Below are positions 42,379 through 59,404 of a stretch of 64,000 bases of DNA, one piece after another. This DNA comes from a virus (lineage: Duplodnaviria; Caudoviricetes). The notes below the pieces were generated by a model that was not told the DNA's origin, ran no database searches, and was given only the letters and a program-made list of their open reading frames with translations. Position 1 is the first letter of the stretch; every line of letters starts with the position of its first letter. Location: positions 32,001 to 96,000 of the IMG/VR virus record IMGVR_UViG_3300021399_000003. One strand, 5' to 3'. The position numbers and the translations under genes are program-made.

Positions 42379-42386
42379 TTTTATCA

Positions 42387-42462: not shown

Positions 42463-42463
42463 G

Positions 42464-42606
42464 TGCGCCATCACGGATTTGAACCGTGGACTCCTTGATT
42501 AATGGTGGAGACCGCCAGAATTGCACTGGCACTATCAGTTTGTTCCTTTACTTCAATGCGCTTGCAGTCCCCAAGTCAAGTGCTCTACCAACTGAGCTAA
42601 TGGCGC
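42464..42606 (-). tRNA. tRNA-Lys(UUU) interrupted in the anticodon by a 70-nt tRNA/tmRNA-like insert (42503-42572)
   Basis: CTTGA-CT T[insert]TT AA-TCAAG; all other arms canonical. Confidence 0.88.
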
Positions 42607-42607
42607 A

Positions 42608-42682
42608 TGGCGTCCTTACTAGGAGTCGAACCTAGATTTTGAACTTAGAAGGTTCAAGTCCTATCCTTTAGACGATAAGGAC
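42608..42682 (-). tRNA. tRNA-Arg(UCU)
   Basis: TGAAC-CT TCT AA-GTTCA; GCCA. Confidence 0.9.
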
Positions 42683-43008
42683 ATTCTTTTATAATATTTT
42701 TCTTCATCTTTTCCGCAATTATCACACCAAGGAAGAATCCAACCAGTAGAATATTTTGTAGCAGGTTGGCCGCAAACACAACACGTTCGTGCGCTTAATT
42801 CTTCGTATTTATTTTCAATTGCATCTATTTCACGCCAATAAGTCATATCACATCTTGCAATTACATCAAGACTTCCCCATTTCTCTTTTAGGTCACAAAT
42901 GTAATAAGTTGGGTCAATAGCTTCACACTCTTCTATCATTTTTCGCGCAAGTTCAATCCAACCAGAAGGAATTGAAGAAAGCCATTTATAATTATTTACT
43001 TGCTCCAT
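42661..43008 (-). CDS. Hypothetical phage protein
   Basis: GW...KEKWGSL...CCVCG..GW...C; 3' end overlaps tRNA-Arg. Confidence 0.7.
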   Translation of the reverse strand: MEQVNNYKWLSSIPSGWIELARKMIEECEAIDPTYYICDLKEKWGSLDVIARCDMTYWREIDAIENKYEELSARTCCVCGQPATKYSTGWILPWCDNCGKDEEKYYKRMSLSSKG

Positions 43009-43430
43009 TCTTTTAACTCCATACCATGCTCTTTAAACCACCGAATAAGAGGCCATCGTTCGGAACAAATATTATCATATTTTTCATAGACTAACAACGC
43101 AAAATCTACATCATTAAATTGTTCTCCAATTTTTATGGTCTCGCTTAATACTTGAAGATGCTCCATCAACATATTGAAATCTATTTTATCTAGTTGTTTT
43201 TTATATTCGTGCAGGAAATCACAATTATTTGGATGCTTAGGAGAGCACTTGCCATTACATAGCCCATCGCAACTCTTTCCGGGCTTCAGCGGTGGAATAT
43301 CTAACCAAATAATTCCATTTTGACTTCTTCCTTTTTGAAGCCATTTTGGATTCCAAACCGCAGTAGAAAGCCCGACCAAATTAGGCGGGAAGTTACGAAT
43401 TTGAGCAAAATAGGAAATATAAATCTTCAT
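42996..43430 (-). CDS. DUF488-like hypothetical protein
   Basis: KIYISYFA..P..YKKQL..LLVYEK..CSER..W. Confidence 0.6.
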   Translation of the reverse strand: MKIYISYFAQIRNFPPNLVGLSTAVWNPKWLQKGRSQNGIIWLDIPPLKPGKSCDGLCNGKCSPKHPNNCDFLHEYKKQLDKIDFNMLMEHLQVLSETIKIGEQFNDVDFALLVYEKYDNICSERWPLIRWFKEHGMELKEWSK

Positions 43431-43444
43431 AAAATCCTTTCATC

Positions 43445-43556
43445 TAGGCACATTATTTTCTATTGCCCTACCTGCTGGGCGACATGCTAAATTTAGCACA
43501 ATCGGACTCGAACCGATGACTCATAGATTACCTATGTAAGTTGCTGTGTGCGCCTA
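43445..43556 (-). ncRNA. ACAGCAA stem RNA, copy b: circularly permuted tRNA mimic (YrlA-like Y RNA candidate)
   Basis: AGGCGCAC-ACAGCAA; T arm ATCGG-TTCGAGT-CCGAT, closed acceptor hairpin TGTGC..GCATG, D arm GCCC-AGCAGGTA-GGGC; ATGTGCCT. Confidence 0.7.
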
Positions 43557-43639
43557 TTTATTATAATTTTAATTCTGGTTTCTTATTAAATTTGGCTTGC
43601 GGTTCTGCGATTGGTTTTTTAATGAAAATCCAATAGTAG

Positions 43640-43711
43640 AGGTCCCGAGCGGCCATGATCCGCTAATTGAAGATTACAAATCTACTATTTTGCCAATTAA
43701 ATTACAGGACC
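43640..43711 (-). tRNA. tRNA-Thr(UGU), atypical T-loop
   Basis: GTAGA-TT TGT AA-TCTTC; T-loop ATCATGG. Confidence 0.7.
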
Positions 43712-43717
43712 AAATTC

Positions 43718-43800
43718 AAGGCACTAATAATTTACTTTAATATACTATTCAAATCTATATTTGTATTTGTAATTATAAAAGTAATTGCTGTATGTGCCTT
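43718..43800 (-). ncRNA. ACAGCAA stem RNA, copy c
   Basis: AAGGCACAT-ACAGCAA..GTGCCTT. Confidence 0.6.
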
Positions 43801-43814
43801 ATTTGTAATAATAC

Positions 43815-43915
43815 TAAGCCGTTTATTGTTTAATTGTGATGGACTTGAACCATCTCTCATTTTGTTTCTCAATCAAAATAATTTATCCACTTAAAAAGAT
43901 TGCTGTGACGGCTTA
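43815..43915 (-). ncRNA. ACAGCAA stem RNA, copy d (contains a T-arm mimic)
   Basis: TAAGCCGTC-ACAGCAA..GATGG-TTCAAGT-CCATC..ACGGCTTA. Confidence 0.62.
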
Positions 43916-43919
43916 AATT

Positions 43920-44147
43920 TTAAGATTTCTTAGAAATAAATTTCATTTCGATTTTAGTATTTGCGGGAATAGAATATAAATCAAAATAATCCGCGGGCAA
44001 TTGACACATAATACTAGAACCCTCAATAGTAAAACAATCACTATACTCTTCTTTATCATTCTGTTTAAGAGTATTCATAAGCCAATGATGAATTGACTTA
44101 ACAAATTCAGCTTTGGTTGCTTGCGCGGACAATTCTTTCTTATCCAT
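43920..44147 (-). CDS. Hypothetical protein
   Basis: ORF with promoter and RBS. Confidence 0.65.
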   Translation of the reverse strand: MDKKELSAQATKAEFVKSIHHWLMNTLKQNDKEEYSDCFTIEGSSIMCQLPADYFDLYSIPANTKIEMKFISKKS

Positions 44148-44263
44148 AATATTTATTTCCTTTCCTTTGATATATTTATTATATCAAAAATTCTAGAAAA
44201 AGTCAAGAAAGAAAGGGGAAGATTTTACGGTTGGGATAATCTTCAAACCCAGTTTTTAAATAG

Positions 44264-44337
44264 TCGGAATGACACGATTTGAACGTGCAACCCTACGCTC
44301 CCAAAGCGTATGCTCTACCAAATTGAGCCACATTCCG
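44264..44337 (-). tRNA. tRNA-Pro(UGG)
   Basis: TACGC-TT TGG GA-GCGTA. Confidence 0.92.
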
Positions 44338-44341
44338 ATAG

Positions 44342-44414
44342 CGAGCCTAACAGGATTCGAACCTGCGATCTTCCGGGAGACAACCGGATATTCTAGCCGC
44401 TGAACTATAGGCTC
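44342..44414 (-). tRNA. tRNA-Asp(GUC)
   Basis: TCCGG-TT GTC TC-CCGGA. Confidence 0.9.
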
Positions 44415-44427
44415 AAATTAGAGTGGC

Positions 44428-45012
44428 TTATGGCCACTCGCCTAGAGGCATACCAAGCCCCGCGCGCTCTACATTGGTATTATAAAATACACCTTCAGTA
44501 GCAGGGCCAGTTAGAAGCTCATCAGCAATAATCTCATATAGAGTACTAATAACACCATGACAATCATTTAAATTATCTGCCGCGAATTGTACTACGCAAT
44601 TATTAAATACTACATAAGTAGTTCCAATCCACTGATAGCCTTCTTCAGCAGGACATACAGAATATGCATAAGCAGGATTACCCTTGAAAGCTGTATCAAA
44701 CAATTCAACCTTACTGGTAAAAGCGCGGTTAGAAGGAATACCATCTACATTTACAGCCAACTTAATATTACCAAAAGAAACTTCTGAAGGAAGAATTTGC
44801 TGCAGTGCGGCGACCTTATCACCATTATTACATGCTAGAACAATAGAAGGATTAGAGCCGCCAAAATTACAATTACAAGCAATCTGTGGGTCACCATCAA
44901 ATAGAGCCTCAAATTTACGAATAGCTATAGTCCAAGGTGGTAGAATCTTTAGTCTTACATCACTCATTTTGTTTTCTCCTTTAATATGAATCGTAGAATA
45001 ACAAATAAACAT
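44428..45012 (-). CDS. Hypothetical phage protein
   Basis: Probable start MSDVRLKILPPW; VVQFAADNLND. Confidence 0.7.
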   Translation of the reverse strand: MFICYSTIHIKGENKMSDVRLKILPPWTIAIRKFEALFDGDPQIACNCNFGGSNPSIVLACNNGDKVAALQQILPSEVSFGNIKLAVNVDGIPSNRAFTSKVELFDTAFKGNPAYAYSVCPAEEGYQWIGTTYVVFNNCVVQFAADNLNDCHGVISTLYEIIADELLTGPATEGVFYNTNVERAGLGMPLGEWP

Positions 45013-45397
45013 CAGGGTTATTTTTCATAAATGAAGCGATTAATGCCAAATTTATGATATCTTGCTGTAAAATAGGAAGTATTTCATCATAATCCCAAAT
45101 GGAATCACCATCTTCTTCCCAAGTTTCTTTGTTCATAAAAGAAACAATAATGCGAATTAGCTCAAATACTTGCTGCGGAGTTTCGATAAGATAGTCATAG
45201 CCAGTATCTTTATAAATTGGAAAAATATTTACTACCTTATTTCTTAAACCCCAATTCTTTCGCCAATAAAGAATTTCTACTCCTCCATCTTGATTATCAA
45301 ATTTTTCATCCAAAGGGTATACCATTCCTTCTGGTAGTATTTCACGCGTAATCTTGCGATGATTTGAGCGGGCAATTATACCATTATCCAATCCCAT
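44981..45397 (-). CDS. Hypothetical phage protein
   Basis: MGLD...EILYWRK family-like. Confidence 0.7.
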   Translation of the reverse strand: MGLDNGIIARSNHRKITREILPEGMVYPLDEKFDNQDGGVEILYWRKNWGLRNKVVNIFPIYKDTGYDYLIETPQQVFELIRIIVSFMNKETWEEDGDSIWDYDEILPILQQDIINLALIASFMKNNPDVYLLFYDSY

Positions 45398-45667
45398 GCT
45401 TATTACTCCTTTTATGAAATAGCTTTAAGATCAGCTAACCGCGCATCCGTTTATTTGCTATCGTGATGGTGATAGGCTTTTCTTAGGAACCTAACGAACC
45501 TATACTCTTTGCCAGCTACATTAGGCGGCTCATGGCACCGCTTATCCCCGTAGACCATTTTAGGGGTTCCTTCGTACTTCGGAAGGGCTAGCTCTCTTAT
45601 GTGACTTCGCGCGTTCACATAAGTGAGACATTGAGTAAGCATAGAGAATAAGTCCTCTATGTGACTA

Positions 45668-45744
45668 TGGCGGCCCGCCACGGACTTGAACCGCGGACAT
45701 CTTGCTTAACAGGCAAGCGCTCTAACCAACTGAGCTAGCGGGCC
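45668..45744 (-). tRNA. tRNA-Asn(GUU)
   Basis: CTTGC-CT GTT AA-GCAAG; GCCA. Confidence 0.93.
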
Positions 45745-45812
45745 AAGGAGGTCCCGTTTATTACTCTAACGGGCAAGAGTGAGGTCATATCAAAGAACAC
45801 ACATTAGGGCAA

Positions 45813-46396
45813 ATACCCTATTTAATAAAACCGTTGCGGCCTTCGCCGTACTTGTATTATCCTTCTAACATATTCAACCACGTTGGAGATGAAGGCTGAG
45901 CCACGGGTAGCAATTCCGGACTTCTTCACCCCGTCTTTCGACCAACAACGGAGAGACTGTTTACTCTCAAATTTCACCTAAACCATTCAGCACAATAATA
46001 TCTAATCAAATCTATTAGATTCATTGTCGTTTTGGGCTACTTTTTCTGTGAACCTCGCTTATATCCTATTTCTAGGTTTCAACGACATCAAGCGTCTTGT
46101 TGGCATTTCCAAGGTTTGCGGTGGTAGCCAGCCACATCTAAAACGCCTAACTTGGATTCAGGTCACGCTTTTAACGCTCACCTTCTATTGCGACGCCGCG
46201 AGGAGCCAAGTTTTTGTTAGCGGATAACCAAGCACCTATCCTTAACATTAGGAGTTTCTCCATATCGCTAGTCATTACTGATTTCGCGGCCTTGGCTTGA
46301 AAGTATCCCATCAAGTTTGGGGCTGTTATTCAGATAGTCCAAGCAGAGTGGTTAGCTCTTCTTCACTTGGTTCAACCATTTTATTAAATAGGGTAT
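45813..46396 (-). ncRNA. Large structured RNA, ROOL-like
   Basis: 584 nt closed by a perfect 18-bp terminal helix (45813-45830/46379-46396), own sigmaA promoter at ~46450, no credible ORF, located in a tRNA cluster. Confidence 0.7.
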
Positions 46397-46422
46397 CTAC
46401 TTCCTTTCCTTGTTTCTATAAT

Positions 46423-46452
46423 CATTATAGCATGATTTTCAGAAAAAGTCAA
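46423..46452 (-). promoter_or_regulatory. SigmaA-type promoter (representative of >20 copies across the window)
   Basis: TTGACT-N17-TATAAT with extended -10 TG; similar -35 boxes near 995, 1825, 14704, 17262, 18071, 20923, 23169, 31985, 36672, 44206, 47422, 47625, 49374, 52127, 53622, 54752, 55160, 57614, 58825, 60096. Confidence 0.8.
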
Positions 46453-46615
46453 ATATTAAAGTGAGCTGTTTTCATCGTGGCCGGTCCACTCTTATCCACG
46501 CTTTCTTGTACACCCCGGGTTCCCTTATACGGGTGCTCGCACCCGCCCAATATCACTGGGGAGCTCTTTGGCATTTCTACTCGCTGATCAGGACGGGAAA
46601 TGCGCTCTTTAATAT
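46452..46615 (-). ncRNA. Unassigned ~165-nt GC-rich structured RNA
   Basis: AATATTAAAG/CTTTAATATT closing stem; internal hairpins such as CGGGTG-CGAG-CACCCG. Confidence 0.45.
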
Positions 46616-46972
46616 TTATTGTAAAGATTAGTCTCAACTACGCCACCAGACGGGCTTATAAGAAGCAATCAAATGCTCTGATTATTTGGTTAGTTGATTA
46701 ACAGCATCGCCACGAGAAGGCTCTTTACTTGATGCCGTAACATCCTAGGATTTGTTCGCTGAGTATTAAGTCCAATAACGAGTCAGGACTCCTAGAATGT
46801 GATAGTTACAGCGGTCGCTACATACGGTTAGCGCCGTTGGCCTGGCTTCTTTTATTTTATAGTCGCGTTTTCCCAGCGTAACTAACAAACGAATGTTAAC
46901 GCGACTTGTCACATTAGCGGGAGGTGACTTGCGTCTGATAGGTTATCATCGCAAACCATTCAGACATAAACT

Positions 46973-47037
46973 AGGCGGATTTTTAGCTATATAGTTTACA
47001 AAATCTATTGCTTAAATAATAGTTGCTGTGGCCGCCT
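46973..47037 (-). ncRNA. ACAGCAA stem RNA, copy e
   Basis: AGGCGGCC-ACAGCAA..CCGCCT. Confidence 0.6.
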
Positions 47038-47214
47038 TGTATCTTATCATTGTAAAGAATTGAGACATATAAATTGTGCTAAAGGACTTGCACCTTTAGG
47101 AGCAGCGACTGACTTGATTGCGCACATCACATCAGTAGGGCTTTAATCATAATCTTCTATTTTCCACTCAACTGCTTTTTCATACTCTATGTTTTTAAGA
47201 GATTTTCTTTTTGT

Positions 47215-47285
47215 TCGAAGCATTGCGATTTGAACGCAACCTTGCCCCTCACAGCGGGGCCGTGCTGCCGCTACACTATACTTCT
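47215..47285 (-). tRNA. Degenerate tRNA-like gene (His GUG- or Thr-like, irregular anticodon loop)
   Basis: D arm; GCCCC-GCTGTGA-GGGGC; TTGCG-TTCAAAT-CGCAA. Confidence 0.55.
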
Positions 47286-47418
47286 AATCTCTGCCGCACC
47301 ATAATTAGGCTGTACGGGCCTTAATATATGGGTTGTACGTGCGACACATTTCATATGGCTTTATACTCACTACACAATTTTTCTTACATATTTATTATAG
47401 CAGATTTTCTGCTAAAAG

Positions 47419-47568
47419 TCAATTATTTTTCTTTTCTATTTTGTCAACAACTGGTGCCCATTCGCCGCAACCTTCACATAGCCAAGGCTCTTCAGAAAGA
47501 ATAATTTCTTCATCTTCTTCAACTGGGCCAAATAGTTTTAGAAAACAATCTTTACAAAACTCTGCCAT
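47419..47568 (-). CDS. Small Zn-binding hypothetical protein (49 aa)
   Basis: MAEFCKDC...LCEGCGE; own promoter and RBS. Confidence 0.65.
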   Translation of the reverse strand: MAEFCKDCFLKLFGPVEEDEEIILSEEPWLCEGCGEWAPVVDKIEKKNN

Positions 47569-47628
47569 TTTATTATCCTTTCCCTTTACTATAATTATTA
47601 TACTATAATTTTAAAAGAAAGTCAAATA

Positions 47629-47844
47629 CTACTTAGTTGGAATCCAAGAAAACTTTCCGCGGCCTCCGTTCCACGCCTGATTCTCTTCTACAAGTTCAAA
47701 AGATGCACAACTACTCTCCTTAAAATAACCATCACCATATTTTTCAAATAGATGGTCAATAGTATCCTGATAAATAACGTTATCTATATTTTTATAAAGC
47801 TGGTCAAGAAGATATGATAGCTAGCCCTTAGTTAATGCTTGCAT
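47629..47844 (-). pseudogene. Small ORF with an in-frame TAG at codon 8
   Basis: MQALTKG*LSYLLDQLYKN...; RBS and promoter present, frame continues 63 codons. Confidence 0.5.
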
Positions 47845-47900
47845 AATTGTTTCCTTTCTCTGCTATAATTATTATACTATAATTTTAGAAGAATGCCAAA

Positions 47901-47978
47901 TGGTAGCACCGATGGGATTCGGACCCATACTGAAATCATTTTGAGTGATTTGCCTCCTGCCAATTGGGCTACGGTGCC
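47901..47978 (-). tRNA. tRNA-Leu(CAA), short variable arm
   Basis: AATCA-CT CAA AA-TGATT; ACCA. Confidence 0.85.
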
Positions 47979-48084
47979 ATAATGGTTATTGTTCCACTAT
48001 CAACTACTTACAGGGTTCTCTTACCCAAGCCATATTACTTCTAATCAGTTTATATAGGACGTATGAAGTAAGAACAGTAGTCCT

Positions 48085-48218
48085 TGGTGCCCCAGACGGG
48101 ACTTGAACCCGTACACCCTCACGGATAGCGGATTTTGGTCGTGGGAAGGAGTGCTGCTCTCCAACAAGCCACTGGGCCCACGTAAGTCCGCTGCGTCTGC
48201 CAATTCCGCCACCAGGGC
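48085..48218 (-). tRNA. tRNA-Leu(UAA) interrupted in the anticodon by a 47-nt mini-tRNA insert (48136-48182)
   Basis: GCGGA-CT TA[insert]A AA-TCCGC; long variable arm; ACCA. Confidence 0.88.
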
Positions 48219-48938
48219 ATAAAAACCTGATGTAACCCTCACGCAGCTAGATGGTTACTTTGAATAGTACTTTAAGGTATACTGCTAATATATAGGCTAT
48301 CAGGCGTAGCCTTAACAAGTAAATGTGTGGTTGTTCGATATTTGCTCCTTTTATTTCTGAACCACACTAAGAAGCCCTTAAATCGACACTCCTCGAACAG
48401 GGTGCGTCCGCGACCATCACGCCGCTATGCATTGTTAACAATGGGCGATTTTTATCGTTGTTCGCCGCAACTACCTAGGTAATAAGTCTCCTAGTGGTGC
48501 GCTTCTTTGAGAGGCGTAAGGAGAACATTTGCGGTGGCGCCTCACAATTAACCGCAATTTCCCTTATAAAGCCCAGTGGGTGGACTCTGGCGCCGAAGTT
48601 TTATTTTCTAGTTTGTGGTGAACTTCAAACCCTTTATAAACTCCATTAATTGCTTCATACTAGAAAAGTAATTAATTTCATCGTTTCATAATCATCTTGT
48701 GATTATGCCGAATACGCTTTCACGTATTCTAAAACTCCTTGTACGCTTGGTACATGAGATAGCGGTGACGCCCTTCAAAAGTACTGGCCGCAATTTTTCG
48801 TTCAGCGTCTAATCCTGCCACTCATCAAGCTTTTCAGCTTGCTCACGGCGAGTCCAAGAAGAAGAAAATACAGTACGAGAAGTCTTACGCACAACTATCA
48901 TTCCTTTCCTTGTTTCTATAAATATTATATCACAATTT

Positions 48939-49313
48939 CTATTCTTCGTCAAATAATTCTTTTAGTTGATTTTCACCATTTTGAATTTTACGTTTATCTG
49001 CGGGAGACCAATTTTTAGAAGGATTATAATTTCCATAGGCATTACGATGTTTGCCCTTGTTATTAGTCTTATTCCGTCTTTGATAATAAAATTCTGGTTT
49101 AGTTTTTGAATAGTAATGAATGGGCTTAAAATATTCTAGAAATTTTTCGCCCCATTTTTCGCGCAATAATTTATAGTTGCGCTTGGCATGACGCCAATCA
49201 TTTTTTCTTTTTTGAGGAGATTCGTCTATATGAATCTCCTCTTCATATGTATACCAGTCATTTCCAAATTCATCACTTTGAGGGCCAATAAGAAAATCAT
49301 CAAATTCTTCCAT
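48939..49313 (-). CDS. Hypothetical protein (acidic N-terminus, basic C-terminus)
   Basis: ORF with promoter and RBS. Confidence 0.65.
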   Translation of the reverse strand: MEEFDDFLIGPQSDEFGNDWYTYEEEIHIDESPQKRKNDWRHAKRNYKLLREKWGEKFLEYFKPIHYYSKTKPEFYYQRRNKTNNKGKHRNAYGNYNPSKNWSPADKRKIQNGENQLKELFDEE

Positions 49314-49370
49314 AAATGATTTGCTCCTTTCCTCTTACTATAATAATTATACTATAATTTTTATAGAAAG

Positions 49371-51086
49371 TCAATCATTTATTCTATAATATTTTATCGG
49401 GACAAATTTTTCTTCCTCTAATTCTTGTAAAAATTTATTAATATTAGCATTAATTTTAGAAATATTATAAAATCGTTGTTTCATTTGAACTAAACAACTA
49501 TGATAACATAAAGACAAAGTTTTTGGAGCGATTTTCATATATTGACGATAATGATTAAAATAAAAGTTTTGAATTATATTCCACTCATCTTCAAGTAATT
49601 CCGGACGTTCATAAGCGATAGCAATAAAGAAGAAATATTCTTGTGCTAAAATATAATTATATTCATCAATTAAATTTTCTATTTCGACATTATTATTTTT
49701 AGCAATGTTTATTGCATGAAGTCCATTGATAATAATTCCTTTACTTAATTTAGTATAGAAAAATTCATTATTATTTTTTTTCGTTAAGGAATTTTTATTA
49801 ATGTGTTCATAGAGAACAGGAATTTTAATTAACTTTGTCATAGGCCAAAATCCATACTCTTCTAACTGATTTAAAATTATTCTACAAGCGCGGCTAAAGC
49901 CATAATCTTCATTAGCATATGATCCTTCTTTATTAAAATGAATATTATACATTTCAATAAAAGAACGTTTATATACAGTACCAATGGTTTTATCATCTTT
50001 ATAGTCAACTAAAATATTTTTATCATCATATACATACGACCAATCATACATTTTAATATAAGTATTTTGTTGAATTTGATTTAAAATAATATTTATACCA
50101 TTTTCATAAAAATAATCGCCTGTATCAACAAAAATAAAATAAGTTCCATTACTATGTTCAATACCAAACTGTCTTGCCATTCCAGGCCCTTGATTTTTTT
50201 TGAGTTGATATAACTGTATTAATGGATATTCATTAATAATATCAGTATAATCTAAATTAGAACAGTCATCAATAACTATTGTATTAATTTGATTATAATT
50301 TTTAAAATCTTTAGTAAAAATTGAATTTAATGTTCTTCTTAGTTCTTTTTTATTTTTATATGTAGGGATGATAATATCTAATACTATATTATCTTGCTTG
50401 TTTCGTTGAATTTTTTCAATCGGTAAATTTTTATAATAATTAAAATGAGGAAAATTTTTTAATTTATAAATGCCAGCAAAATGAGTAATTTTTTCATGTA
50501 TAGGCTCATTTGCTTGTATACAACAATTATAATCCGCAGGAAGAATTAAAACTTTTCCTCGTAATAATTCATTGAAACAATCTTGTTCTTTATATCTATA
50601 CCAATAAGTATTAACCGCATTAATTAATTCGTCATCTTTTTTATCTTCTCGCATTTTATGTAAATTTAACATTACTACACCCATATTAAAATAAGAACCT
50701 TCTTTTTCAGTCAGAACTCTTTCTTCAACTGCGGCTAGATAATAATTGGATAAATCAATTTCCCATAAATCAGATATATTTTCATTTACTATTGTATCCA
50801 TATCAATAGATAAAATTTTATCTAAATGTGGAAAAAATTTAGTATAGGCCGCGCGCAAAAGAACCATATAACTTAAAACATTATCATAATTAGGTCCTGT
50901 TGAAGGGAAATATTGCTGGTCACTAATATTTATACACTCTATTTCTGCTGGAAGTGAATAGGGAAAAATATCATCTTCTATAAGAAAATATATTTTTTCT
51001 ACATTTGAATGTTCGAGTAATGATTTAGCGGAGGTTAACATATTTTCGTATATATTATGCGTTCCACTATAGACAGCCGCGTTCAT
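49371..51086 (-). CDS. Fused glycosyltransferase (GT8 + GT2)
   Basis: IDMDTIV, YFNMGV, EQDCFN, HFAG (GT8); IIIPTY, IDDCS, NQGPGMAR, FVDTGD, ED (GT2). Confidence 0.88.
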   Translation of the reverse strand: MNAAVYSGTHNIYENMLTSAKSLLEHSNVEKIYFLIEDDIFPYSLPAEIECINISDQQYFPSTGPNYDNVLSYMVLLRAAYTKFFPHLDKILSIDMDTIVNENISDLWEIDLSNYYLAAVEERVLTEKEGSYFNMGVVMLNLHKMREDKKDDELINAVNTYWYRYKEQDCFNELLRGKVLILPADYNCCIQANEPIHEKITHFAGIYKLKNFPHFNYYKNLPIEKIQRNKQDNIVLDIIIPTYKNKKELRRTLNSIFTKDFKNYNQINTIVIDDCSNLDYTDIINEYPLIQLYQLKKNQGPGMARQFGIEHSNGTYFIFVDTGDYFYENGINIILNQIQQNTYIKMYDWSYVYDDKNILVDYKDDKTIGTVYKRSFIEMYNIHFNKEGSYANEDYGFSRACRIILNQLEEYGFWPMTKLIKIPVLYEHINKNSLTKKNNNEFFYTKLSKGIIINGLHAINIAKNNNVEIENLIDEYNYILAQEYFFFIAIAYERPELLEDEWNIIQNFYFNHYRQYMKIAPKTLSLCYHSCLVQMKQRFYNISKINANINKFLQELEEEKFVPIKYYRIND

Positions 51087-51098
51087 TTGGTTTCCTCC

Positions 51099-52258: not shown

Positions 52259-52323
52259 ATATTGCGGCTTTAAGCCAGCCGCACGGCTGATTCGATTATG
52301 GCGATTTATAATGTTTATAAATA

Positions 52324-52965
52324 TTATGTGCTATTTTTATCGTATATCATATATTCCCATTTATATCCGCCAGTAGTCTTACGTTTTCCATTACATACTT
52401 CTTGAATATGATTACTGCGGCAACCAATAGCTTCTGCTGCCTCTCGTGCCGAAGAATACACTTTAATTAATGTACCATCTTTTAATAACTGTTTAACAGG
52501 TTTACTATACAAATGTTGCATAGTTTGATAACCTCTTAATATCCGTTCTTGTGATGGAATATCTTTTAAAGCTTGAGATACTGTTGTATCACAATATCCA
52601 GTAATTTCTTTAATAGATTTTTTACTATATCCCTCATTCCATAAATTAATAATTAATTCATAGCTGGCATAAGGTTTTCCATCGCCGCCAATAGTAGCAT
52701 TATAACCATTAGAAAATGAATTATAACTTTCAATCCAAAAACGTTCTTTTTCATCTAGTTCTTCCAAAGTGCATTCTTCTACTATTTCAATATGAAAATT
52801 TTCAATTCCATATTTATTCATGGCAGAATATAATGGACGATGTTCTTTTGATGACCGTTTTGCGTCTTTACAATGTTCTTTCCAACGACGTTCAATAGTA
52901 AAAGCAGTTTTGCCAATATAAATTTTTCCATTAATATCATTAATAATTTTATAAATGTATGGCAT
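52324..52965 (-). CDS. GIY-YIG homing endonuclease (NUMOD1-like tail)
   Basis: YIYKIIN..IYIGKT..RW, GYNATIGG, GGYKW. Confidence 0.9.
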   Translation of the reverse strand: MPYIYKIINDINGKIYIGKTAFTIERRWKEHCKDAKRSSKEHRPLYSAMNKYGIENFHIEIVEECTLEELDEKERFWIESYNSFSNGYNATIGGDGKPYASYELIINLWNEGYSKKSIKEITGYCDTTVSQALKDIPSQERILRGYQTMQHLYSKPVKQLLKDGTLIKVYSSAREAAEAIGCRSNHIQEVCNGKRKTTGGYKWEYMIYDKNST

Positions 52966-53488
52966 AGTTAAATACCTCCTATTTATAATAGGACTAAAGT
53001 GGTTTGATTATAAAGTATAGTTTACTAAGTTCATAGATAAACACTTCTCCCAATCCACTTGAGTCCTGAAAATTCAGGAAATTTTAAAATCTGTGTCTAC
53101 GGACACTTCCTCCCGAATCAATAACATTTGATAACCCAGCTGCCTACTGGGGAGCCAGGGTAACTTTGCTACAGGTGCACCGGTATTACCGCTCATGTCG
53201 CTCCTAACGACTTAATTACATAAATCAACCGGTTGTTTTAAATGAAGTGTCTTCTATCATAGGTCATGACTTCTATGGCAGTTATTACTTCATTTAATAT
53301 GCTGTATTTAATTGGTTTTTCCTATTTATATAGCGCCGATAAGACCATTTGGAGTAACAGTTTGCTCTCCTTTTGCGCTCTAACTTATATTGCACCCTCT
53401 GCTTCACAGGAATCGAACCCGATATAAGTTAGAAACTTATCTTTTAGATAAGATTAAGTTTTTCACAGATAAAACTTTAAAAACTGGC

Positions 53489-53561
53489 TGGTTGCAGGGG
53501 TGGTTGCTGCCACCACGGAGTCTGGTTTATGAGGCCAGATTGAATACTGATTCTCCCTGCA
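53489..53561 (-). tRNA. Atypical tRNA with CAU anticodon (Met/Ile2), minimal D arm, T-loop GGCAGCA
   Basis: TGCAGGG/CCCTGCA-ACCA; CT CAT AA loop. Confidence 0.65.
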
Positions 53562-53618
53562 TTATTTGGTGAGTTCCCTCACCTTGTATAATAATTATAT
53601 CAAAATTTTTAATAAAAG

Positions 53619-53849
53619 TCAAGTATTTTCTTCAGCTAAAATGTCCTTAATTTCCTCATCACACATACAATCTTCACATTCATATACTTTTACGGTATTT
53701 ACATTAGTTTTTCCGTAGTAGTCAACTATTCTATCTACCGCAGCGCCTAACGTTGTTCCTATAGTAAATCCGCCCTCTGTATGACAAGTTTTATCAATTT
53801 CATCCCAAAATTCAATTATATAACGCACTATCATAATATTTTCTCCCAT
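53619..53849 (-). CDS. Hypothetical protein
   Basis: ORF track. Confidence 0.55.
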   Translation of the reverse strand: MGENIMIVRYIIEFWDEIDKTCHTEGGFTIGTTLGAAVDRIVDYYGKTNVNTVKVYECEDCMCDEEIKDILAEENT

Positions 53850-54070
53850 ATAGTATAAATACTATTATCGTCATATTGATTATTAGAAAATTGTTTAATC
53901 AGATCAATTGAAGTCATATGTAAAAGTCCATCTGAAGTTTTCCATGAAACCATTTTATTCTGCATTTTATTCTTATCTGCGGCGATAAGAATAATAAAAT
54001 CTTTAATTGTTATTTTTTCTAGTCCGCGTACTTTATTCCATCTCATACAAACTCTTTCATATCTTCCCAT
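53831..54070 (-). CDS. Hypothetical protein
   Basis: ORF track. Confidence 0.5.
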   Translation of the reverse strand: MGRYERVCMRWNKVRGLEKITIKDFIILIAADKNKMQNKMVSWKTSDGLLHMTSIDLIKQFSNNQYDDNSIYTIWEKIL

Positions 54071-54693
54071 TTAATTTTTACAATTATACGTTCGCCGCGA
54101 CGATTGCGCAATTCAATAGCAGGTCTACATACTACTCCTTCCATTTCACGTTCCTCTTCCGCGATTACAGAATTAGGATGGGTCTTTACATATTCTTCTG
54201 CTGCGTATAAGGAACCAGTGCCTACAATAGGCACAGCCTTAATTCCGAACATTTTTGCAGTTGTTTCTACCCATTCGCGCTCCTGATAGTTATCGCCAAT
54301 AAGCACATCAAAGAGAATAAAATCTACACCGTTGGGAATATACTTTCCACCGCCCTTCTGAATCTTGCGGCCATAACCTTCACCGAAAAGAATAACTTCC
54401 TTTTCGCCAAAAACCTGTTCAAAAATCTGAGCATTAACCTCACCGCCGAACAACTCATTCAAACGAGTAACAAGTTCTGCGGGAATAGCAGCATTATCGG
54501 TGCGACCACCAAAGGTAACAGTATGGCCATCCCAACATACGCGAATGTTAGTGCCATCAACCTTCTCAGTCCAAATCCAGCAATTATCGCTGAGATATTC
54601 TATAGTTGGGTCACGAAATACTCCCGGAAGTAGCTTTTTAGTTCCAGTTGTGTCTCTTTGATAGAGAGTATCAATCTTTTCATACTTTCTCAT
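54043..54693 (-). CDS. ATP-dependent RNA ligase (Rnl2-like adenylyltransferase core)
   Basis: YEKI, TEKVDGTN (motif I), FGEGYG, FDV, EGVV, KIK; no OB domain. Confidence 0.85.
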   Translation of the reverse strand: MRKYEKIDTLYQRDTTGTKKLLPGVFRDPTIEYLSDNCWIWTEKVDGTNIRVCWDGHTVTFGGRTDNAAIPAELVTRLNELFGGEVNAQIFEQVFGEKEVILFGEGYGRKIQKGGGKYIPNGVDFILFDVLIGDNYQEREWVETTAKMFGIKAVPIVGTGSLYAAEEYVKTHPNSVIAEEEREMEGVVCRPAIELRNRRGERIIVKIKWEDMKEFV

Positions 54694-54755
54694 GTGTTTT
54701 GTTCCTTTCTACTTACTATAATAATTATAGCAAAAATTATATAGAAAGTCAAATA

Positions 54756-55109
54756 TTAAATTTCCTTATATCCATAATGAGTAAGAAGTTGCCGCATATT
54801 TGCGACACCAACAGGATTCATGCTATGGATATGAAAACCTACAAGTGGAATTTGATTTTCTACAATATATTTACAAATATCATAACCTGATTTAGCAAGA
54901 GTGTCATCTATTTCATGCCCTTCACCCAAATCATGGTCAAGGTCAATAATTATATTATAAAACTCCTCATTATAATAGTTTAGAAAGAAAATTGCTTCTT
55001 CTACGCTACGGCAAGTAATAGGAATCCATTCCATATGGGTATAGTTACCCAACGTCTTGAAGAAAGTATCATCTTCACGAATATCATCTACATAGATATA
55101 AATATTCAT
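54756..55109 (-). CDS. Cyclic-phosphate-processing receiver-domain protein
   Basis: IYVDDIR, DLDHDLG, GYDICKY, IHSMNPVG. Confidence 0.8.
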   Translation of the reverse strand: MNIYIYVDDIREDDTFFKTLGNYTHMEWIPITCRSVEEAIFFLNYYNEEFYNIIIDLDHDLGEGHEIDDTLAKSGYDICKYIVENQIPLVGFHIHSMNPVGVANMRQLLTHYGYKEI

Positions 55110-55179
55110 ATCTCTCACCCTTTCTATAATTATTATACTATAATTTCTATATTTAGTCAAGAAAAAAGAAGATGAACTT

Positions 55180-55965
55180 TCATTCATCTTCTTCTTTCAC
55201 TAAATATTCATCACTAAATAACATTTCAAGAGTAATATTATCGCGTTCCCAGTATGGAATGCGAACGAGAGGAATGTTGTGGGAAAGGGCGTATTGATTT
55301 TTTTCTTTATCGCGTTGCTGCTGCTCTTTTAATCCATTTCGTGCCTGCCATTTGCCCCATGTTTCTTGATAATGTTGAATACCATCAAATTCAATTAAAC
55401 GGATTAATTCATTATTTTTATTATATATTCCAAAGTCATACCAATAAGGATGTTTATTTTTTCCTAGCAAATTATCAAATCGTACTTCAGGTTTAAAATT
55501 GATATTATTTTCTTTTAAAATTTTTGTTATATTAACTGCTCCAACTGATTTTTCTCTTTTTATACACCCACAAGAAATCGTATGTAAACTACGTAAATTA
55601 TTAGCATCTACATCGCATTCATTTCCGCAAGCACATTTACAATGCCATATGGCATTTTGACTTATGTTACTTCCAGTTTTATAAAGAGCAGTTAAATATC
55701 CAAATGTTTGACCAGTAATATCTTTAGTTAATTTATCACCTATAATTTTACTTTTCATACATCCACAACTGGTATCTCTTTGTAAATTACGAAAATTCTT
55801 TACACAATAATTTCCGCAATGTTTACATAAACAATTCCAAAAGGTATGAGTACCTTTGTTGGGAGCTCGTCCTATTATTTTAAAATTCTCATCTTCATAT
55901 CCAGTTCTATCTTTAAGTGTATTACCTGCTACACCATTAAACCACTGTAATTCTTCATATAACAT
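55180..55965 (-). CDS. Zn-repeat + Vsr/DUF559-like PD-(D/E)XK endonuclease (mobile)
   Basis: WNCLCKHCG/SCGC repeats; YDF, IEFDGIQHY, DKEKN, LVRIPYW. Confidence 0.8.
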   Translation of the reverse strand: MLYEELQWFNGVAGNTLKDRTGYEDENFKIIGRAPNKGTHTFWNCLCKHCGNYCVKNFRNLQRDTSCGCMKSKIIGDKLTKDITGQTFGYLTALYKTGSNISQNAIWHCKCACGNECDVDANNLRSLHTISCGCIKREKSVGAVNITKILKENNINFKPEVRFDNLLGKNKHPYWYDFGIYNKNNELIRLIEFDGIQHYQETWGKWQARNGLKEQQQRDKEKNQYALSHNIPLVRIPYWERDNITLEMLFSDEYLVKEEDE

Positions 55966-55989
55966 AACATCACCTAAAAGAGCCCGTTC

Positions 55990-57522
55990 TTAATGAATGG
56001 GCTCATATCTCTTACTGTTCAGCTTTTCATACATCATGTCCTCAGCCTTCTTGCCAGACATAATCATTTCAAAGATTACAGGAGAGCAACCAGAAACAGT
56101 AGTTACGTCAGGGCCAACGTCCAAAACTGTATTATTACGTGCGTTTACATTCCAAAAAACAAGAGAAGGCATCTTGTATCCAGAATGGCTCCACTTATCA
56201 CGCATCTTATCCATAAAGGTTTGTACCTGATTGGCACTGTAGCCATTATTTCTATTCCAAGAGGAATATCCCTGTGCGGAATCAATTTCTTGGTCACTGA
56301 TAATGACAATGGTTTCAGGCATATCTGCCTGACGCAGATGATTCCGAACAGCAGTATTCAGCACAAGGTCAAATACAGACTGTAGATTGGTGTTTTCGCA
56401 AAGATTCGTCTTTACGATACGGTCAACCTTGTCGCAGAAGTCCACGCCGCGAGTCTCAACAAACTTCGCCGTGCGGCTGAAGCTGATGTAAGAGTTTGCG
56501 AAAGGTCCCTTATTACGCTCTGCGGCATAAAGAGCAAGAGAGACTGCGACATCAATAGGAGCAACGCTACCAGCACCACTCGTCATACTTCCGCTTGTAT
56601 CGGCGACAACAAGGGCATTCAGGGACATGCCATGGAAGTAATCAGTTAGATTCTCCCAATACTTGTTAATCATCAGGCGGTCGGTATTGTCAAGGGCAAT
56701 ATTACTGCCACGGCCATACCAGCTATAGTCCGAACCCATAAGCTTAATGGCCTTAGCAACCACATCATAAGGATATAGTGCGGCTGCATTAACCTTGGTA
56801 GAGGTATCCTTGGCAAACGCTTCATACTTCGCCTTGATTAGATCACGACGAGCAAAAGCGTTCTTATAAATCAGGCCAGCACGAGAAGGAATCTTGTCAA
56901 ATTCAATCTCATTCCAGCGATTTGTGGACATAAGGCGCTCCAGTACACGAATACGCTCACGAAGGTTAGAAAGCAGTACACGATACTGACGAGAGGTTAG
57001 ACCCATAGTATGGGCAGTTAGACGTCCATAACGCTTAGTCTTGGCAGAAGAAGCGTTCTCGGAAGCTGCCCACTTACCAGCAAGGGAAATAGCACCCTTG
57101 GTCTTGTAGTCAAGGGCAAGCTGCTTACCAAGAGCATATAGAGCCTCATGCTCACAGGAAGTCCCTACGAGAGCATATAGGTCGTCCCAGCGGCCATACT
57201 CAGCAATCTGGTCAAGATTGCGAAGTACAGCATCACGATCTACATCAGCAAGCCAATGTAGGCATACACGGAAAAATCTTCTTTCCCCTTGGCCGCCGCG
57301 CACGTCCCGCTCGTAGAATAGGCACTTTAGGGCATATACAGGGTTCTCCTGATAGGCTTCCTTAAAAAGCAGAATACAATCACTTTCGGTGCGCTGACGA
57401 TAAGCTGCGCCGAAAGAGAAGAGGTCATATAGCTTAGAGCTAGTAGTGGTTCGCGCAACAGCATGATTTTCGGTATACTTATAAGTATTTTGAGAAGCCA
57501 TAGCATTGTAAAGACGATTCAT
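55990..57522 (-). CDS. DUF2828 family TROVE/Ro60-like protein with vWA domain
   Basis: TEN, RDVRGGQGER, YGRWDDL, KW, LYPYD, VADTSGSM (MIDAS), ISD, FWNV. Confidence 0.85.
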   Translation of the reverse strand: MNRLYNAMASQNTYKYTENHAVARTTTSSKLYDLFSFGAAYRQRTESDCILLFKEAYQENPVYALKCLFYERDVRGGQGERRFFRVCLHWLADVDRDAVLRNLDQIAEYGRWDDLYALVGTSCEHEALYALGKQLALDYKTKGAISLAGKWAASENASSAKTKRYGRLTAHTMGLTSRQYRVLLSNLRERIRVLERLMSTNRWNEIEFDKIPSRAGLIYKNAFARRDLIKAKYEAFAKDTSTKVNAAALYPYDVVAKAIKLMGSDYSWYGRGSNIALDNTDRLMINKYWENLTDYFHGMSLNALVVADTSGSMTSGAGSVAPIDVAVSLALYAAERNKGPFANSYISFSRTAKFVETRGVDFCDKVDRIVKTNLCENTNLQSVFDLVLNTAVRNHLRQADMPETIVIISDQEIDSAQGYSSWNRNNGYSANQVQTFMDKMRDKWSHSGYKMPSLVFWNVNARNNTVLDVGPDVTTVSGCSPVIFEMIMSGKKAEDMMYEKLNSKRYEPIH

Positions 57523-57787
57523 ATTTTATTTCTCCTTTTCATTTGGTCAGCCCTGGACTAGGGCTCGTTTCTTTCTTACAATATTATTATAGCAGAATTT
57601 TTAGTAAAAGTCAAATAATTTTTCTTAAATGAAATCGCCAAATTTTTCTCTTTTGCTTTATTTCATTACGCTTGGATTTTTCAGTAAGATGAAAAAATTG
57701 AGCTTGCAATTCATTGAATTCTTGCAGCAACTCAGTATGCGCTTGCTGTAATTCATTAAATTTTTCTTTATATTCTAATCCAAACAT

Positions 57788-57970
57788 TTATTGCTCCTTT
57801 GGTCCAATATAGGTATCCCAAATATATTGTAAAACTTTTTGCTCCGCTCCCTTACAGCCATAATTCATACGATAAATGACATCTACTGGTGCTTTTCCAA
57901 AGAAAACGCGATAAGCATAATTGTATACGTCTTTCATCGCATCATATAAATTATCATCTTGAATAAACAT
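57788..57970 (-). CDS. Small hypothetical protein
   Basis: ORF with RBS. Confidence 0.55.
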   Translation of the reverse strand: MFIQDDNLYDAMKDVYNYAYRVFFGKAPVDVIYRMNYGCKGAEQKVLQYIWDTYIGPKEQ

Positions 57971-58142
57971 AATTACTCCTTAGTAAGTTGTGTGGGAGAA
58001 ATTGAAAACATTTCATGCGTTCTCGTGTCCTCTACATAACAAATCATTCCTTTTTCAGTTAAATTAATATCTAATATTTTTCCGCCCTTCATGAATCCGT
58101 CATACCAAAATTTAATTGAATCAAACTTTTTAATATCTTCCA

Positions 58143-58604
58143 TTATTCATGTTCCTCCATAATTTTAGCGGTGTTTATTAAAATTTGAGTCAATTGATTA
58201 CTAATGCCAAAACGTTTGGCATTAATTTCTATACTTTTAAGTAAATTACCCGACTGTTGTCGTTCAGCAGATGCTTTCCAATCAGCCATCATTTCAATTA
58301 AATCTAACAAAGACATGTCATTTATGCCTTCTTTCCAATGCTGTGGATGGTGTTTATTTACGGCATAATGATGGTCAAGTGCTGGTTTAAGTGCCTCTAA
58401 TTCTTTTTTATATTCTTCTGAGCCATATTCAATTTTATTCAAATTTTCTGTATGTTCTGCGAATAATTCTACTTCAGGAGAGACTAATTTACTAGCATCA
58501 TGTTCTACACCACGAGTAGTTAATCTATCAGTAAAAAAGCGGATATACTTACGCACTTTTTCTATGTGCTTTTGAGTTTCCACTCTACATTCGTCAAGTG
58601 TCAT
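58143..58604 (-). CDS. HD-like protein (DUF5662-like)
   Basis: HI..V, HDASK, HHY..NKHHP, EMMADW. Confidence 0.75.
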   Translation of the reverse strand: MTLDECRVETQKHIEKVRKYIRFFTDRLTTRGVEHDASKLVSPEVELFAEHTENLNKIEYGSEEYKKELEALKPALDHHYAVNKHHPQHWKEGINDMSLLDLIEMMADWKASAERQQSGNLLKSIEINAKRFGISNQLTQILINTAKIMEEHE

Positions 58605-58861
58605 TGTTCTTTACCTCCGAAAGGATAAAAGCCTTGAAAGCATTATATCTTATGAACCAATAGTCATTTATACTATTATAGAAAGATACTCCTTCTTTCT
58701 TTTCTTCAAAATTATGAATATTTTCAAAAGTTTCTCGATTGTTATCAGTGTTAATAAAAATAACGTTCATAAAATGCTCCTTTTCTTTTATATAATAATT
58801 ATACTATAATTTCTACTAGAAGTCAAATAGAAAAAACGCACGGTTTCCCGTGCATTTTGAA

Positions 58862-58931
58862 AGCGTCCGGTCAGTGCTGCCCTGACTATCAAGCGGGTTA
58901 CAGCCGCCGTTTGCTGATTCGGTACGGACGC
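58862..58931 (-). tRNA. Atypical tRNA-Tyr(GUA)-like, degenerate D arm, T-loop GGCAGCA
   Basis: GCGTCCG/CGGACGC; GGCGG-CT GTA AC-CCGCT; GTCAG-GGCAGCA-CTGAC. Confidence 0.6.
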
Positions 58932-59072
58932 ATTATTTTGTCACTTCAATTATTGTACATAGACACATTAAAAGGCAACCTGCTAAATTAATGCCACGCA
59001 CCCATGTAGCATTATCTTTAAAAGTATAAAAACAAAAAAGATTTAAAGCCGCTATAAAAGCATAAAATAGTT

Positions 59073-59234
59073 TCATCGTCCACTAAAATCCTCCAAAAAA
59101 GTCATAAAAGACATCATCCACGCGGAACCATACACTACCCAAAATTGCCAAGTTTTGATATTGAAACCAATATTAAACATTACTACTATAAGAATGGTGC
59201 CAAAAATAATGCGACCAAATTTGTATTTGTTCAT
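59073..59234 (-). CDS. Small membrane protein (53 aa)
   Basis: MNKYKF.. with RBS AAGGAG; two hydrophobic segments. Confidence 0.6.
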   Translation of the reverse strand: MNKYKFGRIIFGTILIVVMFNIGFNIKTWQFWVVYGSAWMMSFMTFLEDFSGR

Positions 59235-59253
59235 TATGTTCTCCTTTGAATAG

Positions 59254-59404
59254 TCGGGAACCTGGGACTCGAACCCAGGACACACGGCTTATTGGTCATG
59301 AAGGATAGATTTGAACTATCATTATCTTCTGCTAGACAGAAGTAGTTTTCCAATTTAACTTACTTCATGAAGGCCGCTGCTCTGACCTACTGAGCTAGTT
59401 CCCG
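59254..59404 (-). tRNA. tRNA-Ile(UAU) interrupted in the anticodon by a complete 77-nt tRNA-like insert (59293-59369)
   Basis: GCGGC-CT T[insert]AT AA-GCCGT; insert is a full cloverleaf ending ACCA. Confidence 0.88.

Follow-up and report, generated by a model that had tools for sequence, protein, structure and literature searches.

How can a tRNA gene serve translation when its anticodon is broken by a second sequence that itself resembles a tRNA? The question is raised by three tRNA genes in a 64,000-nucleotide stretch of viral DNA (hereafter the window), which comprises bases 32001-96000 of a 169,459-bp virus record of IMG/VR (IMGVR_UViG_3300021399_000003; Caudoviricetes). The record, which is that of a rumen phage, has direct terminal repeats and is rated complete; its genome is designated G000. 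The genes for tRNA-Lys(UUU), tRNA-Leu(UAA) and tRNA-Ile(UAU) each contain, inside the anticodon, a short tRNA-shaped insert ending in ACCA. On balance, and with some reserve, we favour the reading that these inserts are genuine introns of a protein-dependent, tRNA-shaped class, which would be excised by tRNA-end processing and sealed by an RNA ligase of the phage. Anatomy, boundaries, conservation pattern and gene content were read directly from the sequences; from these we infer every enzymatic step.

Anatomy and shared shape of the inserts

All tRNA genes of the region and most of its other genes lie on the minus strand. The tRNA model of Rfam covered each split gene as a whole (Lys, 42464-42606, 58 bits; Leu, 48088-48218, 40.6 bits; Ile, 59254-59404, 50.8 bits; all on the minus strand). 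In the sequence itself, the anticodon loops read CTT-(70 nt)-TTAA in Lys, CTTA-(47 nt)-AAA in Leu and CTT-(77 nt)-ATAA in Ile, with the inserts placed after U34, A35 and U34, respectively. When the inserts were deleted in silico, ARAGORN called tRNA-Lys(ttt), tRNA-Leu(taa) and tRNA-Ile(tat); the junctions expected after splicing of the three genes are CTTGACTTTTAATCAAG, GCGGACTTAAAATCCGC and GCGGCCTTATAAGCCGT. The loop anatomy and insert sizes given in the original prediction, which had been made from this stretch alone, proved right in every detail, and the restored UUU, UAA and UAU loops were borne out by the ARAGORN calls and by an uninterrupted Ile orthologue. ARAGORN also called the Ile insert a tRNA of its own, with the anticodon CUA, and the insert reached 50.1 bits with the Rfam tRNA model. 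The minimum-energy folds of the Lys and Leu precursors showed the outer cloverleaf with an inner helix projecting from the anticodon loop.

Relatives were found via the ligase protein, by tRNA scans of whole records, by exon and insert patterns in viral contigs and by the exon pattern in metagenome contigs. The inserts amounted to 18 distinct sequences in about ten families unrelated in sequence (four for Ile, termed a to d, two each for Lys and Leu, and one each for Asn and Glu), with lengths of 44-105 nt in the relatives and 47-77 nt in the window. Despite this lack of relatedness all 18 fitted one template in a fixed register, in which bases 1-7 form a stem with the last seven bases ahead of the tail, and a T stem of five layers with a 7-nt loop adjoins those seven directly on their 5' side. 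The description of the inserts as unrelated sequences that start at the 5' base of an acceptor stem, hold a T arm and end in ACCA was thereby extended from the window to the relatives. The pair 53:61 was G:C in every insert, as in real tRNAs, the discriminator was always A73, and CCA formed the last bases of 17 of the 18, the exception (L004) ending in ACAA. Searches in which CCA was not prescribed likewise returned only ACCA-ended true hits; they used ARAGORN set to permit introns, the exon pattern of Lys and, in metagenomes, that of Ile.

Over the 12 template pairs, 93% of the positions in the 18 inserts were paired, against 57% in column shuffles (maximum 66%), and the acceptor pairing of 97% in the true register dropped to 35-45% when the register was slid by 1-3 nt. 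Most template pairs occurred as three or four different Watson-Crick or G.U types. At least six of the seven terminal pairs, an outcome with a chance probability of P = 0.013 per insert, were present in all of the about ten independent families. A chance origin of the tRNA-like shape is excluded. Compensatory changes were observed within families as well: CGTGGG/CCCACG versus CGTAGG/CCTACG (G:C to A:U) among relatives of the Leu insert, GTTGGAT/ATCCAGC versus GTCAGAT/ATCTGGC in the Asn insert, and a swap of pair 1:72 from C:G to G:C in the Ile-a insert.

The shape also bears on a rival reading in which the inserts splice or cleave themselves, as miniature group I-like introns or as small ribozymes. 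Some bacterial and phage tRNAs have group I introns in the anticodon loop, tRNA-Leu(UAA) at U34|A35 among them. The inserts, however, do not exceed 105 nt, have only the tRNA shape in common across about ten unrelated sequences, and show no conserved junction bases; at E values up to 1 over 42400-59500, Rfam matched neither a group I core or other intron nor a ribozyme to them. We regard self-splicing as very improbable. The original prediction had dismissed group I introns and the bulge-helix-bulge (BHB) motif alike, and the junction geometry agrees with the latter point: the outer anticodon stem is followed by 3-4 nt on the 5' side and by 7-8 nt on the 3' side (ACCA plus loop bases) and then by the inner acceptor stem, with no central 4-bp helix.

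The position of the insert within the outer gene varied. It followed base 34 in Lys, Ile and Asn and base 35 in Leu and Glu, while the start of the insert at acceptor base 1 was constant in all. A general rule of an insertion at 34|35 was rejected on account of a gene in G003 and G004, which synteny and the D arm identify as Glu(UUC) cut at 35|36. This gene occupies the Glu(UUC) slot before Glu(CUC) and has its D arm in common with the Glu(UUC) gene of G010; a cut at 34|35 would restore UAC (Val), for which G003 already has a gene. Since the start at base 1 and the CCA end are constant while the exon position varies, the alignment argues for recognition via the insert's own tRNA ends and against a nuclease that takes the outer anticodon stem as its point of reference.

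An encoded CCA can hardly be regarded as special to the inserts, as 88 of the 103 stand-alone tRNA genes of the clade encode it too (5 of 12 in this genome and 83 of 91 in G001-G004). The other seven ordinary tRNA genes of this phage carry a different triplet at that position, mostly CTA or CAA (examples are 40316-40389, 43639-43711, 44263-44337 and 44341-44414), and the outer Lys and Ile genes carry CTA. Phage tRNAs without an encoded CCA would need 3'-end repair by the host.

Two further features of the inserts concern their possible identity as tRNAs. The Lys insert of the window (family Lys-a) and the unrelated Ile-c insert (L043:10023-10174) both begin with GGGG and end with CUCCACCA, and both have G3:U70 and A73. 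These two elements form the alanine identity set of tRNA-Ala and tmRNA, so the excised pieces might be charged with alanine. The CUA (amber) anticodon of the Ile insert is kept across relatives (L039:25-177, L040, L058 and L059). Recoding of TAG was considered as the reason for a CUA tRNA and rejected: the standard code gives dense open reading frames (ORFs), TAG is the rarest stop codon and extensions past TAG are short.

Exon integrity and mobility of the inserts

In related rumen phages, the same syntenic slots hold tRNA genes both with and without inserts. The Ile(UAU) gene is uninterrupted in G003 and G004 and split in G000, G001 and G002; Leu(UAA) is uninterrupted in G003 and G010 and split in G000, G001, G002 and G004; Lys(UUU) is uninterrupted in G001-G003 and split in G000 and G010. 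Two further genes are whole in the phage of the window and split in relatives, namely Asn(GUU), which is uninterrupted in G000, G001, G002, G004 and G010 and split in G003, and Glu(UUC), which is uninterrupted in G000, G001, G002 and G010 and split in G003 and G004. The whole Ile gene of G003 (L024:3641-3717) and the Ile exons of the window are one base apart, which fixes the junction as CTT|ATAA, a clean insertion without duplication.

Removal of the insert restored exactly 7 loop bases in every split gene, and all 23 distinct genes spliced in silico were canonical tRNAs with the expected anticodon. Diverged split copies had fully compensated Ile acceptor stems (of the CGGGAAC, CGATCCC and CGTTCCC types) and, in Lys, a change of the T stem from CACGG to CGCGG with the pairing kept. 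The split genes are the sole genes for UUU, UAA and UAU in this genome and read TTA, AAA and ATA, which account for 46% of the Leu, 69% of the Lys and 30% of the Ile codons; TTA and AAA are the most used Leu and Lys codons of the phage. Compensated stems, canonical spliced forms and the role as sole genes for much-used codons together indicate that the exons are under selection and are not decaying pseudogenes. The original prediction had expected undecayed flanking halves and loop-restoring boundaries in relatives as well, and both were found.

These results are difficult to reconcile with an absence of splicing, in which a mobile tRNA-like element would have disrupted the outer genes, the inner RNA (the CUA tRNA or alanine-type minihelices) would be the product and the outer halves would be discarded. 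Conservation is indeed higher in the inner RNAs than in the exons; relatives retain the CUA loop together with the compensated 1:72 swap, and an inner tRNA could be set free by normal 5' and 3' processing without a ligase. Yet the discarded halves would then have retained perfectly compensated stems in diverged copies and boundaries that restore exactly 7 loop bases, they alone decode the commonest Leu and Lys codons of the phage, and the minimal inserts of 44-50 nt have no obvious use of their own. We consider this explanation improbable. The conservation of the exons, along with the tRNA shape as the sole shared element, disfavours the non-splicing and the self-splicing readings alike.

Codon usage was not uniform along the genome: in a block at 130-160 kb of G000, outside the window, TTA made up 7-20% of the Leu and AAA 38-62% of the Lys codons, compared with 46% and 69% in the rest. 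The genes of this block may be expressed before the phage tRNAs become available.

The inserts were more conserved than the exons that surround them, with identities of 94-100% for inserts and 69-78% for exons in the Leu family, 86% and 70% in the Asn family, and 92% and 81% in the Ile-a family. For this reason they look like mobile cassettes that come and go in orthologues and pass from one tRNA gene to another where the anticodon loops are the same. Near-identical Ile exons (92%) carry unrelated inserts, and at least four insert families occupy the U34|A35 site of Ile. The Lys insert of the window has a 94% identical copy at L001:178-247, and a 105-nt insert unrelated to it lies at U34|U35 of another tRNA-Lys(UUU) gene (L030:2226-2406, minus strand). 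The anticodon stem moves with the insert: GCGGA/TCCGC accompanies the Leu insert in three different tRNA-Leu bodies, whereas uninterrupted genes have GCAGA or TCAGA. This pattern resembles the co-conversion known from intron homing. A class I tRNA (short variable arm) with the anticodon UAA was also found in both states, split at L004:7237-7360 and uninterrupted at L008:10114-10190; the insert of the split gene is of the Leu type and is the one that ends in ACAA.

Free-standing homing endonuclease genes are frequent in the tRNA island and do not lie consistently beside split genes. A homing endonuclease as companion of each split gene was discarded as inconsistent, for the PD-(D/E)XK gene downstream of the Lys gene in the window is absent beside the same split gene in L001. 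A search of the phage proteins for a reverse transcriptase (PF00078) found none.

Repair genes and the proposed route of excision

The protein encoded at 54043-54693 is an Rnl2-type ligase, as originally predicted (Table 1). Its motifs I, IV and V (EKVDGTN, EGVV and IVKIK) are intact and align to K35, EGYV and AIKCK of T4 Rnl2, the nearest solved structure; the C-terminal domain of Rnl2, which binds nicked duplexes, is not present. The neighbouring genes complete an RNA repair cluster, interrupted by an HNH/homing-endonuclease-like ORF. One of them codes for a DUF2828/DUF7788 protein, which we take to be TROVE-like, and a sub-threshold match to YrlA, a Y-RNA-like RNA (RF02553; 43441-43535, minus strand; 34.3 bits, E = 3e-4), lies in the same island and could be the partner RNA of that protein. 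The cREC protein adjoining the ligase contains a predicted cyclic-phosphate-processing domain (PMC7824862). A kinase-HD protein encoded outside the window is the likely end-healing partner of the ligase.

Table 1 Split tRNA genes and RNA repair genes (positions within the window unless stated otherwise)
Feature	Position	Strand	Description
tRNA-Lys(UUU) 5' exon	42573..42606	-	34 nt, last bases C32 U33 U34
Lys insert, 70 nt	42503..42572	-	acceptor GGGGACT/GGTCTCC with G3:U70; T arm GCCAG-TGCAATT-CTGGC; tail ACCA
tRNA-Lys(UUU) 3' exon	42464..42502	-	first bases U35 U36 A37 A38; CTA in place of CCA
tRNA-Leu(UAA) 5' exon	48183..48218	-	36 nt, last bases CUUA
Leu insert, 47 nt	48136..48182	-	acceptor CGTGGGC/TCCCACG (6 pairs and a C.U mismatch); T arm TGGAG-AGCAGCA-CTCCT; tail ACCA
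tRNA-Leu(UAA) 3' exon	48088..48135	-	class II, long variable arm
tRNA-Ile(UAU) 5' exon	59370..59404	-	35 nt, last bases CUU
Ile insert, 77 nt	59293..59369	-	complete cloverleaf, anticodon CUA; acceptor CATGAAG/CTTCATG; T arm GATAG-TTCAAAT-CTATC; tail ACCA
tRNA-Ile(UAU) 3' exon	59254..59292	-	first bases AUAA
Rnl2-family RNA ligase, candidate sealing enzyme	54043..54693	-	PF09414, 60.5 bits; phrog_548; 216 aa, nucleotidyltransferase (NTase) domain only
cREC_REC protein	54756..55187	-	PF20274, 60.7 bits
HNH/homing-endonuclease-like ORF	55180-55965	-	PHROG matches, no Pfam match; between the cREC and DUF2828/DUF7788 genes
DUF2828/DUF7788 protein	55990..57522	-	RNA-binding part of repair cluster; phrog_850 'RNA-binding protein'
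Polynucleotide kinase, AAA_33 with weak HD match	L061:1024-1908 = G000:125027-125911, outside the window	-	nearest structure Clostridium thermocellum Pnkp kinase

In the pathway that we favour, the anticodon loop of a functional tRNA gene contains, as the insert, either a whole tRNA or only its 'top half' (acceptor stem, T arm, A73 and CCA). The precursor would fold as an outer cloverleaf from whose anticodon loop the inner mimic projects. RNase P of the host would cut at base +1 of the inner mimic and leave a 3'-OH on the 5' exon, and an RNase Z/BN-like endonuclease that respects CCA would cut right after it, so that the 3' exon would begin with a 5'-phosphate. The halves would be kept together by the outer acceptor and anticodon stems until the Rnl2-family ligase of the phage closes the nick and the loop has 7 nt again. 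The 3'-OH and 5'-phosphate ends left by RNase P and RNase Z are those that an Rnl2-type ligase needs. The inserts also display the features of RNase P and RNase Z substrates, that is a coaxial 12-layer stack of acceptor and T arm, a 7-nt T loop, and a discriminator followed by CCA, with one or two mismatched layers at the stem junction in some families.

RtcB (PF01139), the CCA-adding enzyme (PF01743), an RNase Z-like MBL protein (PF12706) and EndA (PF01974) were not found in five complete genomes, and a search with Rfam revealed neither an RNase P RNA in this genome nor any other Rfam family outside the window. As no known excision enzyme was found in the phage genomes, the cutting enzymes must be host enzymes or unrecognised phage proteins. 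The host is likely a Gram-positive member of the Clostridia, because relatives of the lysin with 50-65% identity occur in metagenome-assembled genomes (MAGs) of rumen and gut Clostridia and a GDPD domain is present in a tail-region protein. Comparison with 50,697 phage records by blastn gave generic tRNA matches only and no close cultured relative. Near-threshold RNase Z matches appeared in two of five candidate host-class genomes, for which the host assignment is too loose to be used.

Co-occurrence with the ligase was tested in large, sufficiently complete records with inserts. All ten of those tested encode a PF09414 ligase, in three architectures: 216 aa in G000-G004, G012 and G015, an OB-fold joined to the NTase domain (408 aa) in G011 and G014, and a form split by an intein in G013, where the gene (L047:103-1899) is interrupted by Hint and LAGLIDADG domains. 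The association with ligase genes for which the original prediction had proposed a test was found in these records. The consistent co-occurrence is at odds with the idea that the halves are cut apart and never ligated, and act as nicked or split tRNAs or as regulatory tRNA halves. Nicked tRNA halves are known to stay annealed in cells, and the TROVE-like protein and the Y-RNA-like match lie nearby; a tRNA broken inside its anticodon, however, cannot decode. Such an outcome appears highly improbable to us.

Rumen metatranscriptome runs contained 5-10% of the sampled words, and when contigs of four runs were compared with 42300-59500, the assembled contigs contained no spliced RNA, excised insert or processing end, and none bridged the inserts or ended at them; they covered the ROOL RNA (one exact contig of 507 nt) and parts of tRNAs common to other organisms, and they speak neither for nor against splicing. 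Several observations weigh against excision by tRNA-end processing followed by ligation. The 3' cut after CCA is the weak link of the pathway: we know of no Gram-positive host enzyme documented to cut exactly after an internal CCA, and RNase Z of Bacillus subtilis is inhibited by CCA, while cutting after CCA has been reported for the RNase Z of Thermotoga and for RNase BN of Escherichia coli. The template itself is imperfect in places: some families have a weak T stem (three of five pairs in Ile-b), layers 7:66 and 49:65 are mismatched in Leu and Ile-c, and L004 ends in ACAA. Five more distant ligase-bearing phages (G005-G009) have few tRNAs, none of them split. The ligase is part of a generic heal-and-seal set (kinase-HD, cREC and TROVE-like proteins), which is to be expected even in the absence of introns and is not evidence specific to splicing. 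Finally, by our reading of the sequences in Table S6 of PMC6784885, the tRNA introns of Lak phages have an additional 5' hairpin, so that RNase P alone cannot set their 5' splice site. Of the predicted excision as a tRNA mimic with sealing by the ligase, the boundaries, the cut sites that follow the insert and the fit of the ligase thus stand, whereas the ligase lends no splicing-specific support and the steps of the pathway are those that we infer.

The main rival invokes a dedicated, unrecognised endonuclease of phage or host, which would read the insert or the helix-loop-helix junction and leave a 2',3'-cyclic phosphate and a 5'-OH; the kinase-HD and cREC proteins would heal these ends and the ligase would seal them, as T4 Pnkp and Rnl1 do. 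The whole healing set is encoded, with an AAA_33 kinase-HD protein nearest to Pnkp of C. thermocellum and a cREC protein adjoining the ligase, many ORFs of the tRNA island lack an assigned family, and a precise cut after CCA is explained by no known enzyme. With the complete set of healing enzymes at hand, the ligase could deal with ends of either chemistry. In contrast, in about ten unrelated families both boundaries fall exactly on mature tRNA ends although the exon position differs, which is expected of tRNA-end enzymes and superfluous for a nuclease that reads the junction, and no EndA-like gene (PF01974) was found in the five complete genomes. We judge a dedicated nuclease to be unlikely, and retain excision through the tRNA ends of the insert, followed by ligation, as the preferred reading.

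Two structured RNAs are located among the tRNA genes of the window on the minus strand, a full-length ROOL RNA (45818-46394, 298 bits) and a drum RNA (48591-48686, 60 bits).

Related introns and biological meaning

The statement in the original prediction that the arrangement had not been described was not quite right. 'Enigmatic' introns were reported in tRNA genes of the Lak megaphages by Devoto et al. 2019 (PMC6784885; Fig. 4, Table S6), who aligned copies with and without intron, noted that one 'itself may encode a tRNA' and proposed no mechanism; a 2026 survey of jumbo phages mentioned in passing that such introns 'could encode another tRNA'. A full-text search of the literature found no paper on the excision or mechanism of such introns. 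Like the inserts studied here, the Lak introns are short, lie in the anticodon loop of phage tRNA genes and restore a canonical tRNA when removed; they are polymorphic in presence among close relatives, more conserved than their surroundings, contain a tRNA-like fold and occur in genomes that encode an RNA ligase. They differ in that, according to our own reading of Table S6, all listed introns consist of a 5' hairpin and an A-rich linker followed by a tRNA-like unit, which ends in a discriminator C plus A or TA, has no CCA and is not flush at the 5' end, whereas the inserts described here consist of the tRNA mimic only, flush at both ends and with an A-CCA tail. The phages differ as well: the present one has a genome of 169 kb, the standard code and probably a clostridial host, while the host of Lak phages is Prevotella. 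The inserts are a variant, flush at both ends and closed by CCA, within a class of phage tRNA introns that has hardly been described; for this variant several unrelated inserts at one site, discordant histories of inserts and exons, and a consistent ligase context are documented here.

With group I introns the inserts share the location and the kinds of tRNA concerned, such as Leu(UAA) at U34|A35, as well as mobility, presence and absence among relatives, and co-conversion of the flanking exon; group I introns, however, measure at least about 200 nt, have a conserved catalytic core and are self-splicing, whereas the present inserts are short and tRNA-shaped. Archaeal and eukaryal introns, which are processed through the BHB motif by EndA/Sen and RtcB or Trl1, resemble the proposed pathway in the protein-dependent removal of a short anticodon-loop intron and in enzymatic ligation. 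The sites in the present genes, however, are 34|35 or 35|36 instead of 37|38, the cut sites would be set by the intron's own tRNA ends, and neither an EndA nor an RtcB gene was found. To our knowledge, bacterial hosts have no EndA. In MALAT1 mascRNA, plant mitochondrial t-elements and mitochondrial tRNA punctuation, an embedded tRNA-shaped element likewise recruits RNase P and RNase Z; there, only ends are made and nothing is religated, whereas here the flanks would be rejoined. The repair pathway of T4 (cleavage by PrrC, healing by Pnkp and sealing by Rnl1), together with nick sealing by Rnl2, offers a parallel in which the anticodon loop of tRNA-Lys(UUU) or a similar tRNA, once broken, is closed by a phage ligase with its kinase and phosphoesterase partners. 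In that case host-inflicted damage is mended, while here the break would be programmed by the structure of the gene itself.

The suggested shielding of anticodons against anticodon nucleases by the inserts is a weak idea, since a spliced tRNA would be as exposed as any other. We propose tentatively, with confidence a little short of even, that these genes represent a third way of tRNA splicing besides self-splicing and the BHB/EndA route, in which a tRNA-mimic intron recruits the 5'- and 3'-end machinery of the cell and a phage ligase completes the reaction, with a ligase-dependent tRNA supply and the spread of the introns as cassettes. We know of no textbook that lists such a route. If true, this would be protein-only tRNA splicing in bacteria-phage systems, derived from housekeeping tRNA-end enzymes and a repair ligase, and it would explain the 'enigmatic' introns of large phages known since 2019. 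Phage Rnl2-type ligases would have a constitutive task beyond the mending of host-inflicted damage. Once excised, the inserts may also act in their own right, as an amber-suppressor tRNA or as minihelices with the G3:U70 alanine mark. The inserts would constitute a new kind of mobile element, which needs neither a ribozyme nor an encoded protein, and the tRNA supply for the commonest codons of the phage (UUA, AAA and AUA) would depend on its own ligase, which would give the phage a means of switching its own translation.

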